Of a DNA stretch of 6,641 nt, positions 1 through 6,641 are shown piece by piece. The notes beneath the pieces are model-generated. The model was not told the DNA's origin, did not search any database, and saw nothing but the letters and a program-made list of their open reading frames with translations. Within the stretch, counting starts at the first letter, position 1. Every line of letters starts with the position of its first letter. Source of the DNA: a virus (Duplodnaviria > Heunggongvirae > Uroviricota > Caudoviricetes); IMG/VR virus record IMGVR_UViG_2713896729_000007, positions 1 to 6,641 of that record; one strand, given 5' to 3'. The translations under genes were made by a program, and so were the position numbers.

Positions 1-216
1 ATGAAATCCATGGACAAGTTAACAACGGGCATTGCCTACGGCACCTCCGCAGGCAGTGCTGGCTACTGGTTTTTACAGTGGCTTGATCAGGTCAGTCCAT
101 CACAGTGGGCTGCTATTGGTGTGCTGGGAAGTCTGGTTCTGGGCTTTCTGACTTACCTGACGAATCTGTACTTCAAAATAAGAGAAGACAAGCGTAAAGC
201 TGCGCGGGGAGAGTAA
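1..216 (+). CDS. Class II pinholin, phage 21 S-like (Qin essQ-like), 71 aa
   Basis: ORF begins at window position 1 with MKSMDK, the dual-start Met1/Met4 motif of S21 antiholin/holin; 71 aa with hydrophobic segments and a charged C-terminal tail ([13 protein letters not shown]); located immediately upstream of an endolysin and Rz/Rz1. Upstream sequence is not visible. Confidence 0.88.
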
Positions 217-220
217 TTCA

Positions 221-565
221 ATGACTCAAAACTATGAACTGATTGTGAAAGGGATCCGCAATTTTGAGAATAAAGTTACGGTAACTTTAGCGTTACGGGA
301 CAAAAAACGCTTTGACGGTGAAATTTTTGACCTGGACATCTCGCTGGACCGTGTTGAAGGTGCCGCGCTGGAGTTTTATGAGGCAGCAGCCAGAAGGAGC
401 ATCAGACAGGTCTTCCTGGATGTTGCTGCCGGGTTATGTGAAGGGGATGAGCTGTCGCCGGAAAAGCGCCCCATAATTTTAGAGGCGCAGAATGTGTGGA
501 TAACCTACAAAGGAAAGCTACCGGGAAGAATTACTGGTTCTCTGAAGACTCCGCCGAAATGGTAA
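221..565 (+). CDS. Holin-coupled 114-aa soluble hypothetical protein in the lysis cassette (possibly YdfR/DUF1327-like, from memory only)
   Basis: ATG at 221 lies 4 nt after the holin stop, with GGGGAGAG upstream as a Shine-Dalgarno; E. coli-like codon usage; no hydrophobic segment. Family assignment rests on recalled similarity of the N-terminus (MTQ.YEL.VKG.RNFENKVTVT) to the Qin ydfR product and is unverified. Confidence 0.6.
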   Translation: MTQNYELIVKGIRNFENKVTVTLALRDKKRFDGEIFDLDISLDRVEGAALEFYEAAARRSIRQVFLDVAAGLCEGDELSPEKRPIILEAQNVWITYKGKLPGRITGSLKTPPKW

Positions 566-803
566 TTTCACCAGCATATTTTTCTTCCAGTAATACCGCC
601 AGCCACTTGAAAGAATTTTGTTGTTGCTGGGACCATTTGGGGTTGAGTGATTCAAGCTGGAGCGATGCCAGTGTTGGTTGCATTTGTTCCTTGGGAATTG
701 AGAATGCCAGATATGAAAATGCGACAGTAAGGGCATTTACATCATCCCGAAGCTTGGAAATGCAGTCGAGCAACTCCTGTAGAGAAATGGTGCTATTGTC
801 CAT
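531..803 (-). CDS. Candidate 90-aa hypothetical protein convergent with the lysis operon
   Basis: ATG at 803..801 is preceded on the - strand by GAGAGG with a 7-nt spacer; a possible TTGAAT-N19-TACAAT promoter lies just upstream; the translation is helix-like and not low complexity. Its 3' end overlaps the 221-565 ORF by 35 nt. It could still be a chance ORF. Confidence 0.25.
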   Translation of the reverse strand: MDNSTISLQELLDCISKLRDDVNALTVAFSYLAFSIPKEQMQPTLASLQLESLNPKWSQQQQNSFKWLAVLLEEKYAGEITISAESSENQ

Positions 804-908
804 AAACAATCCTCTCTATTGTATTTAACTATTCCTTGCCTGATTCAACAGGCCGGGACAGATAAACATATCCAGGGTTCAGAAACCGATAAATCCTGAT
901 AAATATCC

Positions 909-1442
909 ATGAACGTAAAAATCAGATACGGCCTGTCGGCTGCCGTTCTGGCACTGATTGCCGTCGGTGCGCCTGCGCCTGATATTCTCGACCAGTTTCT
1001 GAATGAAAAAGAAGGTAACCACACAACGGCATACCGCGATGGTTCCGGCATCTGGACCATCTGTCGGGGTGCCACGGTGGTGGATGGAAAACCCGTTTTT
1101 CCCGGTATGAAACTGTCGAAGGAAAAATGCGACCAGGTTAACGCCATTGAACGGGATAAGGCGCTGGCATGGGTGGAGCGCAATATTAAAGTGCCACTGA
1201 CCGAACCACAGAAAGCGGGTATAGCGTCATTTTGTCCCTATAACATTGGCCCCGGTAAGTGTTTCCCGTCGACGTTTTATAAGCGGCTGAATGCCGGTGA
1301 TCGTAAGGGTGCATGCGAGGCGATTCGCTGGTGGATAAAAGATGGTGGGCGCGATTGCCGCATACGTTCAAATAACTGCTATGGACAGGTTATTCGTCGT
1401 GACCAGGAAAGCGCATTAGCCTGTTGGGGGATAGATCAGTGA
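909..1442 (+). CDS. SAR endolysin, T4-lysozyme-like muramidase (GH24), 177 aa (Qin rrrQ-like)
   Basis: Catalytic E-x8-D-x5-T motif ([16 protein letters not shown]); Gly/Ala-rich weakly hydrophobic N-terminus ([17 protein letters not shown]) typical of signal-arrest-release endolysins partnered with pinholins; stop codon overlaps the Rz start. Confidence 0.88.
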
Positions 1443-1809
1443 GCAGAGTCGCCGCGATTATTTATGCTCTGGTTATCTGCATCATCGTCTGCCTGTCGTG
1501 GGCGGTCAATCATTACCGTGATAACGCCATCGCCTACAAAGAACAGCGTGATAAAAAAGTCAGTGAGCTGAAGCAGGCGACCGCCACCATTACTGACATG
1601 CAGCAACGCCAGCGTGCTGCTGATGTACTCGATGCTAAATACACGAAGGAGTTGGCTGATGCGAAAGCTGAAAATGATGCTCTTCGGCGCAAGCTTGATA
1701 ATGGTGGTCGGGTGCTCGTCAAAGGAAAATGCTCTGTGCCATCCTCAGCCGAAACCTCCAGCGCCTCCGGCATGGGCAATGATGCCACCGTCGAACTCTC
1801 TCCAGTTGC
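1439..1809 (+). CDS. Rz-type i-spanin, 3' end truncated by the N gap
   Basis: GTG at 1439 overlaps the endolysin TGA (GTGA), preceded by GGGGGA with a 7-nt spacer; N-terminal transmembrane segment ([17 protein letters not shown]) followed by a charged, coiled-coil-like periplasmic region; runs into N run at 1810. Start could alternatively be TTG 1424. Confidence 0.78.
1659..1809 (+). CDS. Rz1-type o-spanin lipoprotein embedded in the +1 frame of Rz, 3' end truncated by the gap
   Basis: ATG at 1659 preceded by AAGGAG; product [19 protein letters not shown] with lipobox VVGC followed by a proline-rich region ([11 protein letters not shown]); lies entirely within Rz in another frame. Confidence 0.75.
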
Positions 1810-1819: not shown

Positions 1820-1908
1820 AGAGGATGGCACAGGGCATTTTCCTTTGACGAGCACCCTGCCACCATTATCAAGCTTCCGCAGAAGAGCATCATTTTCAGC
1901 TTTCGCAT
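1820..1908 (-). CDS. rzoD: Rz1-type o-spanin lipoprotein, second copy, 3' end truncated by the gap
   Basis: ATG at 1908..1906 preceded on the - strand by AAGGAG; product [29 protein letters not shown] with lipobox VAGC; embedded in the second Rz. Symbol inferred from the DLP12-like gene order. Confidence 0.65.
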
Positions 1909-2128
1909 CAGCTAACTCCTTCGTGTATTTTGCATCGAGCGCAGCAACATCACGCTGACGCATCTGCATGTCAGTAATTGCCGCGTTCGCCAGCTTCAGT
2001 TCTCTGACATTTTTGTCGCGCTGGGCTTTGTAGGTAATGGCGTTATCACGGTAATGATTAACAGCCCATGACAGGCAGACGATGATGCAGATAACCAGAG
2101 CGGAGATAATCGCGGTTACTCTGTTCAT
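1820..2128 (-). CDS. rzpD: Rz-type i-spanin, second copy, 3' end truncated by the gap
   Basis: ATG at 2128..2126 overlaps the endolysin stop (ATGA); N-terminal transmembrane segment ([16 protein letters not shown]); roughly 88 percent nucleotide identity, by eye, to the reverse complement of 1439-1809. Confidence 0.78.
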
Positions 2129-2622
2129 TGCTGACCCCACAAACAGATTTCACGCTCAATCTCACGACGAGTCATGAGACCTTTCCATTGCTTACCGCCA
2201 GCATATGTCCAGCGACGTAGCTGATCACATGCGTCTTTGATATCGCCCTTGTTTATTTTGCGAAGAAGCGTCGATGTTCTGAAATTGCCAGCACCCACGT
2301 TGTAAACGAATGAGTAAAGAGCGCCGCGCATTGTTTCCGGTATATCGACTTTGATGTACGGGTTAATTTGTCTGGCGACCGTGGCAAGGTCTTTATTCAG
2401 GAGGGCTTTGCATTCTGCTTTGGTATACGTTTTACCGAGCATGATGTCTTTTCCTGTATGCCCGTGACATACAGTCCATACACCAACAATATCTTTGTAT
2501 GGTATGTAGCTGACACCTTCCAGACCATCGTTACCACTTGGGCCAGTAATTAACACTGATGCTATAGCAATTGCTCCGCCACCAATAGCAGCAGCAACGG
2601 CTTTTCGTAATGATGGAGGCAT
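2125..2622 (-). CDS. rrrD: SAR endolysin, phage 21 R-like, T4-lysozyme-like muramidase, 165 aa (DLP12 rrrD-like)
   Basis: Begins [27 protein letters not shown] (SAR domain); E-x8-D-x5-T motif ([16 protein letters not shown]); ATG overlaps the holin TAA by 1 nt; 165 aa. Confidence 0.88.
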
Positions 2623-2837
2623 TATTCACCTCTCGCAGCCTTGCGCTTATCTTCTTTAATCTTGAAATAAAGGTTTGTCAGGTACGTCAGCAGGCCAAAT
2701 ACCAGGCTACCCAGCACACCTATTGCTGCCCACTGTGAGGGCGTGACTTTATCGAGCAGCTGTAAAAACCAGTAACCGGCACTACCTGCTGAGGTGCCAT
2801 AGGCGACACCCGTTGTTAACTTATCCATGGATTTCAT
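2622..2837 (-). CDS. essD: Class II pinholin, phage 21 S-like, 71 aa (DLP12 essD-like)
   Basis: [16 protein letters not shown] dual-start motif; ATG at 2837..2835 preceded by GGTGGGG with about 6 nt spacing. The 86-aa version in the ORF track is an N-terminal extension without a better ribosome-binding site. Confidence 0.85.
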
Positions 2838-3424
2838 AACCCCACCTCGCAGACAAAGCGGGTGTAAATTGAGGGAATACAACGTATCGCAAAAAAGCAG
2901 AAACGTAACAGACTCGGAGTCAGTGAATAACTCAGGTATTGGGTTATCAGCTAATATCGAGACTCAAAAAATGGAAAAATCCGCTCGACGGCGGGTTTAA
3001 GCTGTGTGACGAAGTAACCACTCTTAACAGCATAACCAATTTTTTACGTACGTAAACCACTAAATGATATTTGCGAGAATGCTACCGAGTATTGAAAACA
3101 CCACTACAAATACATAAGCAAATCTCAACAAATAACCAACAAATAATTTCCAGCGTTATTTTTAGCTGGTTTAAATTGAATCTTCAAATTATAGAGCACT
3201 TATAAATAACAGCCATTAATATAAATTGGCTAATAGATTTATTTTTATTCAGCCAAGAGCCATGAATAGGATTCGATAGAAAAAGTTCAGATAAAAATAG
3301 AGATCTACTTCACAAATCAAATGAGAAACCAAAACTTACATCTTGAAATAATCACATTGATTAGATGAATATTTATCGCGCAGTGACATCATTTTTTAAT
3401 AATAGTTCAAAAAAAGGGCTCACG
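2838..3424. promoter_or_regulatory. AT-rich divergent control region between the holin (-) and the porin (+)
   Basis: About 590 bp, strongly AT-rich with many A/T tracts (3050-3400), no convincing ORF, directly upstream of the porin start at 3425; exact promoter elements not resolved. Confidence 0.4.
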
Positions 3425-4507
3425 ATGAAAAAATTAACAGTGGCAATTTCTGCTGTAGCTGCATCAGTACTGATGGCGATGTCTGCTCAGGCAGCTGAAA
3501 TTTATAATAAAGACAGTAACAAGCTGGATCTGTACGGGAAAGTTAATGCTAAGCACTACTTCTCCTCTAATGATGCAGATGATGGTGATACTACTTATGC
3601 CCGTCTTGGCTTCAAAGGTGAAACCCAAATCAACGATCAACTGACTGGTTTCGGTCAGTGGGAATATGAATTCAAAGGCAACCGCGCTGAATCTCAAGGT
3701 TCCTCCAAAGATAAAACCCGTCTTGCCTTCGCTGGCCTGAAATTCGGTGACTACGGCTCCATCGATTATGGCCGTAACTACGGTGTAGCATACGATATTG
3801 GTGCATGGACCGACGTTCTGCCAGAATTCGGTGGCGATACCTGGACCCAAACAGATGTATTCATGACTGGTCGCACCACAGGTGTTGCAACTTATCGTAA
3901 CAATGACTTCTTTGGTCTGGTTGATGGTCTGAACTTTGCTGCTCAGTATCAGGGTAAAAATGACCGCACTGACGTAACTGAAGCTAATGGTGATGGTTTC
4001 GGTTTCTCCACTACTTATGAGTATGAAGGATTCGGTGTAGGTGCAACCTATGCTAAATCTGACCGCACTAATAATCAGGTTATCTACGGTAACAACAGCC
4101 TGAATGCATCTGGTCAAAATGCTGAAGTATGGGCAGCTGGTCTGAAATATGATGCGAACAACATCTATCTGGCTACCACCTATTCTGAAACCCAGAACAT
4201 GACTGTTTTTGGTAATAACCATATTGCCAACAAAGCACAAAACTTCGAAGTAGTTGCACAATATCAGTTCGACTTCGGTCTGCGTCCGTCCGTTGCTTAC
4301 CTGCAATCTAAAGGAAAAGACTTGGGTGCGTGGGGTGATCAGGACTTGGTTGAATATATTGATGTAGGTGCAACCTATTACTTCAACAAAAATATGTCCA
4401 CTTTTGTTGATTACAAAATCAACCTGATTGATAAGAGCGATTTCACGAAAGCATCTGGCGTTGCTACCGATGATATCGTTGCTGTAGGTATGGTTTACCA
4501 GTTCTAA
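3425..4507 (+). CDS. nmpC: General-diffusion outer-membrane porin of the OmpC/OmpF/NmpC family, intact, 360 aa
   Basis: Signal peptide [23 protein letters not shown] followed by [16 protein letters not shown]; conserved porin motifs ([17 protein letters not shown]-terminal VYQF with terminal Phe); position between a Q-like gene and the S-like holin on the opposite strand matches DLP12. The track ORF start at 3365 was rejected in favour of ATG 3425 directly before the signal peptide. Confidence 0.9.
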
Positions 4508-4522
4508 TTTGATTACTAAAAG

Positions 4523-4556
4523 ATATGTTGCGGGAGGCTTTGCCTCCCCAACATAT
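4523..4556. terminator. Long imperfect hairpin 16 nt after the porin stop; candidate bidirectional or - strand (tR'-like) terminator
   Basis: atatgttg-c-gggaggc ttt gcctccc caacatat forms a 15-bp stem with one bulge; on the - strand it is followed by CTTTTAG; on the + strand it is not followed by a T run. Confidence 0.4.
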
Positions 4557-4644
4557 AAGTGGCTCCCTCAAGCCACTTCCTTTAGGAGCACAACCTTGCT
4601 TCTAACTATATAAACCTTCTGTTATATATTACCCTTTATTTTTG

Positions 4645-4669
4645 GGGGCGTCTCAACGCCCCATTTTTA
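4645..4669 (+). terminator. Rho-independent terminator, + strand
   Basis: ggggcgt ctca acgcccc (7-bp GC-rich stem, 4-nt loop) followed by ATTTTTAA; on the - strand it is followed by an A run, so it is unidirectional. Confidence 0.5.
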
Positions 4670-4695
4670 ATAACTTTTAGTAAATAATTGGCGTA

Positions 4696-5058
4696 TTAAT
4701 TAGAGTTATTAACAACGATATCCATCTCTAACCGGATATCTAATGCCATTAACATCCCTTCAATTATGCCCTCAGCCTTCTGTAACCTTTTCCCGATATA
4801 ACCATCAGAGCAGCAATGCTTACCTGCCAGTGACATGAATGTCATACCGACTACATAATAATCTACTAATAAATCGTGCAAATCGCTGTTGTTCTTTTTC
4901 AGACGGGCCATGCACCCGCAAATGATCATCGCGTCATCGTCACAACATTGCGGGCGAGATTTTACTTTTGAAGTAATTAATCCCTTAAAACCGGCGGCAA
5001 TGGACGACCAGGTCACATCTTCATGATTATTAGCCGCCCACGCTCCCCAACGCTCAAG
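4696..5058 (-). CDS. quuD: Q-like late-gene antiterminator, C-terminal about 120 aa; N-terminus lost in the gap
   Basis: Reading frame with paired cysteines (QCCDDD, CGC, KHCC) suggesting zinc binding; stop at 4698..4696; its position relative to the porin and holin matches DLP12 order quuD-nmpC-essD. Identity is recalled from the DLP12 QuuD (phage 82 Q family) sequence, unverified. Confidence 0.55.
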
Positions 5059-5068
5059 NNNNNNNNNN
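5059..5068. other. Assembly gap (10 N), probable scaffold join
   Basis: Run of exactly 10 N separating a 5' lom fragment from unrelated Q-like coding sequence. Confidence 0.9.
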
Positions 5069-5346
5069 CGTAAGGAATCTTCATGCCAGCGGGTATCGCT
5101 GTAACGGGTCAGCTGGCGATTCTTGTCTCCTGCATAGCTGAATGACGTCACCAGCCCTAGTGTGTCCGTAAACTCATAACGGTATTTCACGTTAATCCCG
5201 TTCAGATCATCGCTGCCGGGAACGTTCGTCGAGGCATGAAGATAGCCCGCGCTCAGCGTGGACTGATGTTCAGACGCCCATGCAGGCGCACCGGATACGG
5301 CCAGACAGATGGCTGCGGACAAAATGGCGGCATAAAGTTTACGCAT
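5069..5346 (-). CDS. lom: Lom outer-membrane protein (Ail/OmpX/PagC family), N-terminal 92 aa only; truncated at the gap
   Basis: MRKLYAAILSAAICLAVSGAPAWA signal peptide followed by SEHQSTLSAGYLHASTN...YAGDKNRQLTRYSDTRWHEDS, near-identical to lambda Lom as recalled; ATG at 5346 preceded by GAGAGG with a 6-nt spacer; lies immediately downstream of J as in lambda. Confidence 0.85.
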
Positions 5347-5414: not shown

Positions 5415-6641
5415 TCAGCTAATCGTGATACCTGCTGTGGATTTCTTCATCACCACAACCAGCAAATCGCTGATACTGGCTGTGGGATACCAGTCATTTA
5501 CCAGCCACGCTGATACCGAAAACTCCAGCGTCATGTGACCGCGACCAGCAGGCATATCAATAACACCTGTATAAACCAGCGTATTATCCAGCGCGGTACG
5601 GTTATAAATTTCAGCACCGTTTTTCTTCACTATCAGGCGGCATGACGAATAAATATCGTTATTCTCCCGCTCATGTTTAGCGCCACGAAACGCCACCGCG
5701 GGAATAACAATCTGCCGGTCAAACGGCTGATCGTCATAAACCCTGACGGTAATGGTCCCTGATGGCCACCGCTCCGGTGCACGGGAGTCCCGGGGGAAAG
5801 CTTTGCCCACTGTTTTAACGAGATCGCCTTCAATCTGGTTCGCGGACAGTTTTCCCAGAACCCGACAGTTCTCGTTAATCGTGACATTGTTGAGCGTCCC
5901 GGCGTTCGCATTCACACTGCCACTGATATCCGCATTTTTAGCGGTCAGCTTTCCGTCCGGTGTCAGGGAAAATACCGGTGGATTTCCACCACTGGTAATG
6001 GTGGGGGCCGTCAGGCGTTTGAGGAACACGTCGTTCATGAATATCTGGTTGCCCTGCGCCACAAACATCGGCGTTTCATTCCCGTTTGCCGGGTCAATAA
6101 ACGCGATACGATTGGCGGCAACCAGAAACTGGCTCAGTTTGCCTTCCTCTGTATCCTCCATGCTGAGGCCAAGCCCCGCGACATAATGTTTGCCGTCTTT
6201 GGTCTGCTCAATTTTGACGCCCCACATGGCATTCCATTTATCGTTGGCGTCTTTCCACTCTTTCGAAAACTCCTCCAGTCTGCTGGCGTTATCCTCCGTC
6301 AGGTCGACTTTTTCCAGCAGCTCCTTGCCGAGATGGGATTCGGTTATCAGGCCTTTGAAAAAATCCAGGTAACCTTCCGCATCATCGCTCGCCCGACCGA
6401 CGGCCTCCACAAATGCCGATTTGCCAACGGTGTTCACACTGCGGATATAAAAGTAATAATCATGGCCCGGTTTGATATTGATACTGGCGGCTATCCAGTA
6501 CAGCGCCGTACCAAGATAGCGGGCTGTGGTTTCAACCTGCCTGATATCGGTAATCCGCGTTTCCGAGAACCAGAACTCAAACTGTACCGTCGGATCATAA
6601 ACCGCAAGATGCGGCGTGGCGGTTATCTGAAAATAGCCCGG
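5415..6641 (-). CDS. J: Tail tip / host-specificity protein J, C-terminal about 408 aa; 5' end beyond the window
   Basis: Frame is open from the window edge at 6641 ([33 protein letters not shown]...) to the stop at 5417..5415 and ends ...[17 protein letters not shown], matching the lambda J C-terminal region as recalled. The internal start at 6437 in the ORF track is an artefact. Confidence 0.9.

Follow-up and report, generated by a model that had tools for sequence, protein, structure and literature searches.

A YdfR/DUF1327 family gene between holin and endolysin genes of a lambdoid late operon: modular structure, genomic slots and a possible link to RNase E

Results and Discussion

Organisation of the locus

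The window, that is, the whole stretch of 6641 nt that was analysed, opens with a lysis region in which the following features were recognised.

1..216, plus strand: phage-21-type class II holin gene (pinholin-type S), 71 aa; PF04971, E 3.5e-35; phrog_20/9876 "holin"
207..220, plus strand: conserved cassette joint made up of the Shine-Dalgarno (SD) sequence GGGAGAG (207-213), the holin stop codon TAA (214-216) and the 4-nt spacer TTCA
221..565, plus strand: YdfR/DUF1327 family gene, 114 aa, ATG at 221
221..442, plus strand: N module of its product (residues 1-74), acidic (pI 5.1), predicted as three beta-strands and a long helix
443..556, plus strand: M module (residues 75-112), EKRPIILEAQNVWITYKGKLPGRITGSLKTPP, swappable; pI 9.7 computed for residues 75-114
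531..803, minus strand (803 to 531): convergent 90-codon gene, here called anti90; phrog_2411, E 2.4e-59; WP_000370550.1
895..908, plus strand: SD-less leader of R, ATAAATATCC before the ATG
909..1442, plus strand: RrrQ-type lysozyme gene R, 177 aa; PF00959, E 1.3e-24; phrog_7 endolysin
1439..1809, plus strand: Rz-type spanin gene; PF03245, E 2.6e-20; cut by a run of N at 1810-1819

The 114-aa ORF at 221..565 was confirmed, with its ATG 4 nt past the holin stop codon. The holin gene has a dual start (M1/M4), and the SD sequence of the gene that follows is buried inside its final codons. The same geometry of SD, TAA, four nucleotides and ATG was common to the 12 E. coli-type junctions read in the slot between S and R (10 together with L019 and L021), and two variants of the joint were found: in L025 the spacer has 3 nt and the start codon is GTG, and in L026 the joint is repeated around an additional short ORF. 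Translational coupling to the holin, as proposed in the first-pass annotation, is a reasonable reading of the geometry alone. Folding of the S/ydfR junction RNA revealed no unusual structure (z = 0.19), so that the ydfR start site may simply be independently accessible; this value and that for the leader of R (0.00) provide no evidence of a coupling that depends on RNA structure.

The reading frame of 221..565 gave dN/dS ratios of 0.16-0.58 for both halves in eight pairwise comparisons, which identifies its product as a protein under purifying selection. As had been predicted, a membrane segment is absent from this product (maximum Kyte-Doolittle 19-residue mean 0.69, compared with 1.72 for the holin). 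Its description as an acidic protein was not borne out, the whole protein having a pI of 7.8 with 17 D/E and 18 K/R residues. The YdfR protein of E. coli K-12 is acidic as a whole (pI 5.6) and may be the source of that description. The gene had also been placed between holin and endolysin; these neighbours are right, but it is not the sole gene there, the convergent 90-codon gene having been overlooked.

Family assignment and distribution

The profile search proposed at the outset matched the product of 221..565 to PF07041 (DUF1327) over residues 1-112 with 142.8 bits (gathering cut-off 25; E 4.1e-42), and to phrog_406 over its full length (1-114/114; E 1.5e-67). The protein is 100% identical to WP_001468348.1, a RefSeq "YdfR family protein" (L001; APEC IMT5155), and to the copy in phage Chlobot (PP925838). 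Its membership in the YdfR/DUF1327 family, the one named in the first-pass annotation, is practically certain, and the features that characterise the family, a small soluble product encoded in late operons of lambdoid phages of Enterobacterales, were found here. The five PHROG matches were all to families of "unknown function", a search of NCBIfam with the same protein gave no match, and nothing lysis-related was found in Pfam, NCBIfam or PDB. Likewise, the defence models of PADLOC-DB did not match YdfR, anti90, the convergent partner in L005 or a 183-aa form of the family. The entry P0161, a repeat protein of 3128 aa that matched residues 7-58 weakly six times (32% identity), was set aside as repeat-inflated and uninformative.

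What had been named as speaking against a part in lysis was that the protein should match a well-characterised family whose known function is unrelated to lysis. Half of this was found: the family is still a DUF, but residues 1-72 of the K-12 homologue have been tied to RNase E (PMC13232886).

YdfR-family DNA was present in 4349 of 5426 complete E. coli genomes, in up to 10 copies per genome. A match spanning at least 80% of the present variant was found in 1906 genomes of this set, and the whole block of window positions 1-1500, at a coverage of at least 80%, in 1319 genomes. The family is seldom met outside Escherichia and Shigella: 1.84 billion representative proteins yielded only 65 clusters at 50% identity, and the hits of a species-level genome scan were confined to these two genera and two probably contaminated metagenome-assembled genomes. 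The identification of 221..565 is thus routine annotation of a very common E. coli prophage gene that is already named in RefSeq. Most E. coli lambdoid prophages carry a member of the family in their late operons. Stx1a and Stx2c phages are among them, and there the release of toxin is governed by late-gene expression and the timing of lysis.

Modular structure of the protein

YdfR of K-12 (b1555, Qin prophage, encoded between essQ and rrrQ) belongs to the same PF07041 family. Over residues 1-74 the two proteins agree at 60 of 74 positions (81% identity; 96% positives), and nothing is alignable beyond this segment of the 103-aa K-12 protein. The divergence from YdfR that had been suspected from about residue 70 is therefore real, with the break at residue 74. 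In an alignment of 33 sequences, residues R44, G47, A48, L50-E54 (L50 E51 F52 Y53 E54) and A57 of the N module were invariant, and they persist across homologues that are 31-96% identical. Two AlphaFold2 models of the N module had the same secondary structure, with pLDDT values of 58-86 per 10-residue block over residues 1-70. The M module was poorly predicted (pLDDT below 50), also within the 183-aa form (pLDDT 36-46), whose C-terminal extension was modelled as a two-helix hairpin.

Behind the N module the 33 aligned members carry alternative tails, namely the K-12 tail, the M module, that of a 104-aa variant and those of longer forms. The longer forms (169-287 aa) add a coiled-coil hairpin or other extensions, and the N module also exists alone, as proteins of 71-73 aa. 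The M module, which is absent from K-12 YdfR, occurs behind a different N part in P0143. The tails of the present protein and of K-12 YdfR are unrelated and both basic (pI 9.7 and 9.2, respectively).

In the comparison with the BP-4795 homologue, dS was 1.6 for the N module and 0.17 for the M module, which indicates a separate recombination history of the latter; in the comparison with L019 a break was located near residue 45. Both results show that recombination has shuffled the parts of YdfR, and breakpoints were placed near residues 45-50, 74 and 112. These breakpoints, the invariant residues and the stand-alone forms of 71-73 aa suggest that the N module is the functional unit.

Genes downstream of ydfR

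The anti90 gene overlaps the 3′ end of ydfR by 35 nt and has the SD sequence GAGAGGA 7 nt ahead of its ATG at position 803. Its homologues, 63 in Escherichia/Shigella, are mostly of 90 aa. The same DNA is covered by a plus-strand ORF, 496..828. The dN/dS ratios (0.16-0.54 for anti90 versus 0.14-0.29 for ORF 496..828) cannot separate the two, because their frames share wobble positions. ORF 496..828 is broken by stop codons in five of six diverged loci, while anti90 is full length in three of the diverged loci (L019, L023 and L025), bears a deletion that keeps the frame in L021 and is frameshifted at its C-terminal end in L020. ORF intactness across loci decides in favour of anti90 over ORF 496..828. 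Upstream of anti90 a weak TTGAAT-N19-TACAAT was seen by eye, which was not counted as evidence; a simple and crude scan of both strands of positions 1-1500 found no sigma-70-like or terminator-like site, and thus returned no promoter-like site for this gene.

The endolysin gene R starts 344 nt past ydfR. The sequence ATAAATATC[CT]ATG at its start was kept in all 10 of the YdfR-bearing cassettes aligned, and in K-12 it is ydfR coding sequence. The R product has a SAR-like G/A-rich hydrophobic N terminus and an E35-x8-D-x5-T motif, and is 94% identical to K-12 RrrQ. The K-12 ydfR gene likewise lies 4 nt after a class II holin gene and upstream of the gene for a 177-aa RrrQ-type lysozyme; however, it overlaps rrrQ (ATGA) and has no antisense gene, whereas in the window the convergent gene intervenes before R.

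Slots occupied by DUF1327 genes

The presence of ydfR at the joint between S and R is optional. The second lysis cassette of the window (cassette B) had been reported to have no such gene and indeed lacks it: the stop codon of its holin gene (2622..2837, minus strand) overlaps the ATG of its lysozyme gene (2125..2622, minus strand), and a tblastn search of the window recovered no second ydfR copy. In the Stx2a phage Min27 the joint GGGGAGAG TAA N4 ATG runs straight into R (91% identical), and in phage-21-type cassettes S is joined to R directly. Phage records with the RrrQ-type lysozyme numbered 457, those with YdfR 101. Moreover, in the Stx prophage loci L017-L019 the unit S-YdfR-anti90 is followed by genes for Phage_holin_8, holin_3_7 and Peptidase_M15_4, the last without an N-terminal hydrophobic segment. 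An obligate link of YdfR to the RrrQ-type lysozyme was therefore rejected, and, as the M15 peptidase loci show, YdfR is not tied to a SAR endolysin.

More distant relatives occupy other places. Tail genes I and J flank P0171 (39% identity), in the slot in which L027 carries DUF1327, and P0176 (31% identity) is located between tail genes M and L in lambdoid-type phages of other Enterobacterales, as exemplified by L028. P0158 directly follows Rz (the slot seen in L029), and the DUF1327 copy of L048 adjoins KilA-N-like and unknown-function genes. All these distant relatives are still matched by PF07041 and the same PHROGs; none lies between holin and endolysin genes, and only that of L029 is located in a lysis cassette. 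The N module is maintained in several genera and slots, and co-occurrence with a holin is not obligatory in the DUF1327 family (L027, L028 and L048 have no holin neighbour). In every E. coli-type locus read YdfR adjoins S, an adjacency that the 4-nt joint, doubling as a recombination site, would explain as well as a functional tie would.

Since ydfR is optional and its relatives occupy tail slots, accessory cargo is favoured over a regulator of pinholin or endolysin, and 221..565 is probably an accessory late-operon gene rather than a lysis component. The first-pass annotation had allowed for a modulator of lysis or unrelated cargo; the direct S-R joints in Min27 and cassette B, the M15 peptidase loci and the tail-slot relatives bring the evidence down on the side of cargo.

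The concept of the moron reportedly goes back to Juhala and Hendrix in 2000. Lambdoid morons (lambda bor and lom; phi80 morF in the tail operon) share with ydfR the presence or absence at exact late-operon joints, seen here as S followed after 4 nt by R in Min27 and by YdfR, anti90 and R in the window. In addition, the L028 tail M/L region with its DUF1327 pair aligns to the phi80 tail region annotated with morF and terminators. A promoter and a terminator of its own, the other mark of a moron, were not detected for ydfR in the crude scan of positions 1-1500. It is read as part of the late operon, using the SD of the holin gene, and so would be expressed as a late gene and not, unlike morons, from the prophage.

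Convergent partner genes

A convergent small gene within 50 nt of the 3′ end of a DUF1327 gene, or overlapping it, was seen in eight architectures (raw tally of the loci read):

Window type: partner of 90 aa, PHROG 2411
L005 and PhiR12: partners of 88 and 86 aa, respectively, PHROG 2572
Stx2 phage 86 (Stx2-86): partner of 104 aa, PHROG 1853
Phage Evi: partner of 98 aa
L027: partner of 74 aa
L028: partner of 101 aa, PHROG 25324
L029: partner of 186 aa
L048: partner of 98 aa

Identity between the partners in L028 (tail slot) and Evi (S/R slot) is 61% over 98 aa; each is the neighbour of a DUF1327 gene that encodes the N module only. All 12 IMG/VR loci with a partner of the Evi/L028 type have a convergent DUF1327 gene, 11 of them being near-identical Evi-type loci and one (L048) representing a different context. 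Since the L048 partner belongs to the family of the Evi and L028 partners, the eight architectures are not all independent. BLASTP and hhalign revealed no homology among the convergent partners except between those of Evi and L028 and between those of L005 and PhiR12, and at least five unrelated families are represented among the partners. The architectures of K-12 Qin, BP-4795/H-19B, 716R1 and mEp460 lack a partner, and anti90 survives in L023, where the YdfR slot has decayed. The convergent pairing may reflect a true two-gene unit or shared permissive insertion joints. As far as can be told, neither this pairing nor the non-lysis slots of the distant relatives have been described in the searchable literature on DUF1327/YdfR.

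A possible link to RNase E

[quoted passage not shown] Strep-YdfR co-purified FLAG-Rne 1-598 from lysates, together with DNase-resistant nucleic acid (PMC13232886). The contact, observed with overproduced tagged protein, may be direct or RNA-bridged (PMC13232886). The K-12 protein accumulates stably when expressed, and its overproduction caused neither toxicity nor an effect on growth and changed few transcripts (PMC13232886).

The interacting segment (K-12 residues 1-72) coincides with the conserved N module. The high identity over this segment is shared by the present protein, the C-terminal tail is not. From these comparisons, binding of the N module to host RNase E and/or RNA would be its most likely activity, although we rate it as doubtful and well below an even chance because it derives from a single study of a homologue.

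Among the proteins that bind the N-terminal half of Rne, K-12 YdfR was assigned to the RapZ-like "group II" (PMC13232886). RapZ, which binds the catalytic half of RNase E, co-purifies RNA as K-12 YdfR does (PMC7430671). YdfR has no sequence similarity and no convincing fold similarity to RapZ or to RraA/RraB, global regulators that also bind the catalytic half of RNase E. The phage-encoded RNase E modulators phiKZ Dip (gp37), T4 Srd and T7 gp0.7 are among the nearest known systems.

The explanation that we prefer is that 221..565 is an optional, portable accessory gene of the late operon whose product acts on RNase E or RNA. As a whole it is put forward tentatively, at slightly less than an even chance. 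YdfR is a small cytoplasmic protein with a conserved acidic N module (residues 1-74) and a swappable basic tail (residues 75-114). Its gene and the convergent 90-codon gene occupy the slot 4 nt past the holin gene that belongs to the endolysin gene in phages without YdfR, the latter being displaced 344 nt downstream, behind a leader without SD. Since ydfR uses the SD in the last codons of the holin gene, the protein would be made from the late transcript alongside the holin. To judge from the K-12 homologue, the N module would dock, either directly or via RNA, on the N-terminal catalytic half of the host's RNase E, and the basic tail may contribute RNA binding. Late in infection, YdfR would in this way change RNA processing or decay that depends on RNase E, a possible target being the sense/antisense RNA pair created by the convergent neighbour. 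The comparative result thus points away from control of holin or endolysin and towards RNase E and RNA.

Alternative explanations

According to a first alternative, the two genes form a unit in which the convergent gene is expressed in the prophage as lysogenic-conversion or exclusion cargo, and late YdfR, or the antisense transcription itself, switches it off or is switched off by it, RNase E binding being incidental. The recurrence of a convergent small gene in eight architectures, the conservation of the Evi/L028 pair across different slots, and the good SD and conserved ORF of anti90 speak for it. However, with partners from at least five unrelated families, recognition by one conserved N module is hard to reconcile. 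The partnerless architectures and the persistence of anti90 beside a decayed YdfR in L023 also weigh against such a unit, as do the promoter-like site not found for anti90 in the simple scan and the lack of a PADLOC match. Both genes could, moreover, be independent insertions at the same permissive joints. On balance this reading appears unlikely.

YdfR could also be a cytoplasmic regulator of lysis timing that is produced together with the pinholin and binds the charged C-terminal tail of the pinholin, or the SAR endolysin before its release, and delays or sharpens triggering. The constant position of ydfR straight after a class II holin gene in the E. coli-type loci read, nearly always at the same joint, and the retention of the S-YdfR unit even where R has been replaced are consistent with such a role. 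There is also a precedent in T4 RIII, which Chen and Young (2016) are said to have described as a soluble cytoplasmic antiholin. Like YdfR, RIII is a small soluble cytoplasmic protein linked to lysis genes and touching RNA metabolism: it is reported also to bind ribosomal protein S1 (PMC9409239). The two proteins have no detectable similarity, the holin partner of RIII is T and not a pinholin, and the distant relatives of YdfR, unlike RIII, are not beside holin genes. The Keio ydfR deletion scored as envelope-leaky in a screen in which it is listed as a hit in the supplement, the main text (Paradis-Bleau 2014) omitting ydfR (PMC3879167). This phenotype could mean that YdfR restrains EssQ/RrrQ, or equally well be a polar effect of the resistance cassette on rrrQ.

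Against lysis timing, the same holin and lysozyme alleles work without YdfR in Min27, cassette B and phage 21, and the holin retains its own dual-start antiholin. The relatives in tail operons or elsewhere have no holin neighbour, the protein resembles no "lysis" PHROG or Pfam family, and overproduction of K-12 YdfR had no effect on growth. There is accordingly little support for 221..565 as a regulator of pinholin or endolysin, and we regard control of lysis timing by YdfR as decidedly unlikely.

That the ORF is a functionless passenger, retained only through its linkage with the lysis genes or else untranslated, is scarcely credible: the very narrow taxonomic range of the family (the 65 clusters given above), the frequent truncations, fusions and frameshifts among database entries and the want of an assigned function would suit it, but both modules are under purifying selection, residues have stayed invariant in homologues as little as 31% identical, the strong SD is conserved, the N module is kept in several genera and slots, and the K-12 protein is stable when expressed.

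An extension of the preferred reading, the accessory gene with RNase E/RNA activity, makes the DUF1327 N module the constant half of a portable cassette of two genes, a late gene in sense orientation and a variable convergent one, that hops among the S/R, after-Rz, tail M/L and I/J joints, the DUF1327 product recruiting or blocking RNase E at the sense/antisense overlap. We consider this extension speculative and improbable. If true, such a cassette would let a phage hold opposite-strand cargo in its late operon without wrecking late expression or, alternatively, would time the silencing of the cargo at induction.

In addition, overexpression of ydfR has been found to raise the streptomycin MIC three-fold (PMC12924614).

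Organization of the window

Two runs of 10 N, at positions 1810-1819 and 5059-5068, link unrelated pieces; the window is a scaffold of non-contiguous DNA. At an N-run junction the spanin gene Rz of cassette A (S-ydfR-anti90-R-Rz) is fused to its cassette B counterpart (S-R-Rz, minus strand), which lies in inverted orientation. The gene order of the middle piece, positions 1820-5058, was DLP12-like, with a Q antiterminator (minus strand), a porin on the opposite strand, and after it a minus-strand group of S, R21-type lysozyme and Rz genes. The features outside the cassettes were as follows.

Features of the middle and third pieces of the window
3425-4507, strand opposite to the minus-strand Q antiterminator: OmpC/NmpC-type porin (PF00267, E 3e-153)
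4696..5346, minus: chimeric ORF of 216 aa, Ail/Lom N terminus (5069-5346) joined to Q antiterminator (4699-5058)
5415-6641, minus: tail tip protein J, C-terminal portion only, in the third piece

Convergent partners of DUF1327 genes

A convergent gene, which shares 35 nt with ydfR, was found between ydfR and the endolysin gene.

531-803, minus: anti90, 90 codons, conserved, PHROG 2411

The plus-strand ORF 496..828, on the same DNA as anti90, was rejected as a shadow ORF, interrupted by stop codons in five of the six diverged loci. In the other loci listed below, a small gene in tight convergence follows each DUF1327 (YdfR family) gene; the slots involved, in late operons or elsewhere, number five. 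The convergent partners in phage Evi and locus L028 shared 61% identity despite their different slots (S/R versus tail M/L).

DUF1327 genes with a convergent small gene in comparison loci
L027, 3001-3506
L028, 449-1001
L029, 503-1328
L034, 1301-1840
L031, 1301-2431
L048, 2001-2540

Possible effect of ydfR on the lysis cassette

A leader without a Shine-Dalgarno sequence (SD), ATAAATATC[CT]ATG, precedes the RrrQ-type endolysin gene and was conserved in YdfR-bearing cassettes (window 895-911; equivalents in L001-L013); in K-12, the bases of ATAAATATC double as the final ydfR codons. Unlike these cassettes, the Stx2a phage Min27, in which YdfR is absent, carries the SD of R within the 3' end of the holin gene, and thus YdfR insertion may alter the S:R translation ratio.

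In L026 (2084-2216) an additional short ORF sits between S and YdfR, bounded by a repeated GGGAGAGTAA-N4-ATG joint, which suggests that this joint is a recombination site for cassette exchange. In three Stx prophages (L017-L019, 430-2803) the genes after the S21-type holin, YdfR and anti90 formed another lysis set of a different kind (Phage_holin_8, Phage_holin_3_7 and a Peptidase_M15_4 protein without SAR segment) replacing the lysozyme, so that one cassette, located 3' of the stx genes, holds two holin systems. The YdfR slot of L023 (1774-1948) contained only frameshifted remains of a gene like that of the homologue P0143 (coiled-coil N part plus the basic tail, or M module), beside intact holin, anti90 and lysozyme genes. 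A ParDE-like pair was observed 3' of this lysozyme.

The giant repeat protein P0161 (3128 aa) gave six weak matches to residues 7-58 of the YdfR N module (32% identity), probably a chance likeness of beta-rich segments inflated by the repeats, and was set aside as uninformative.
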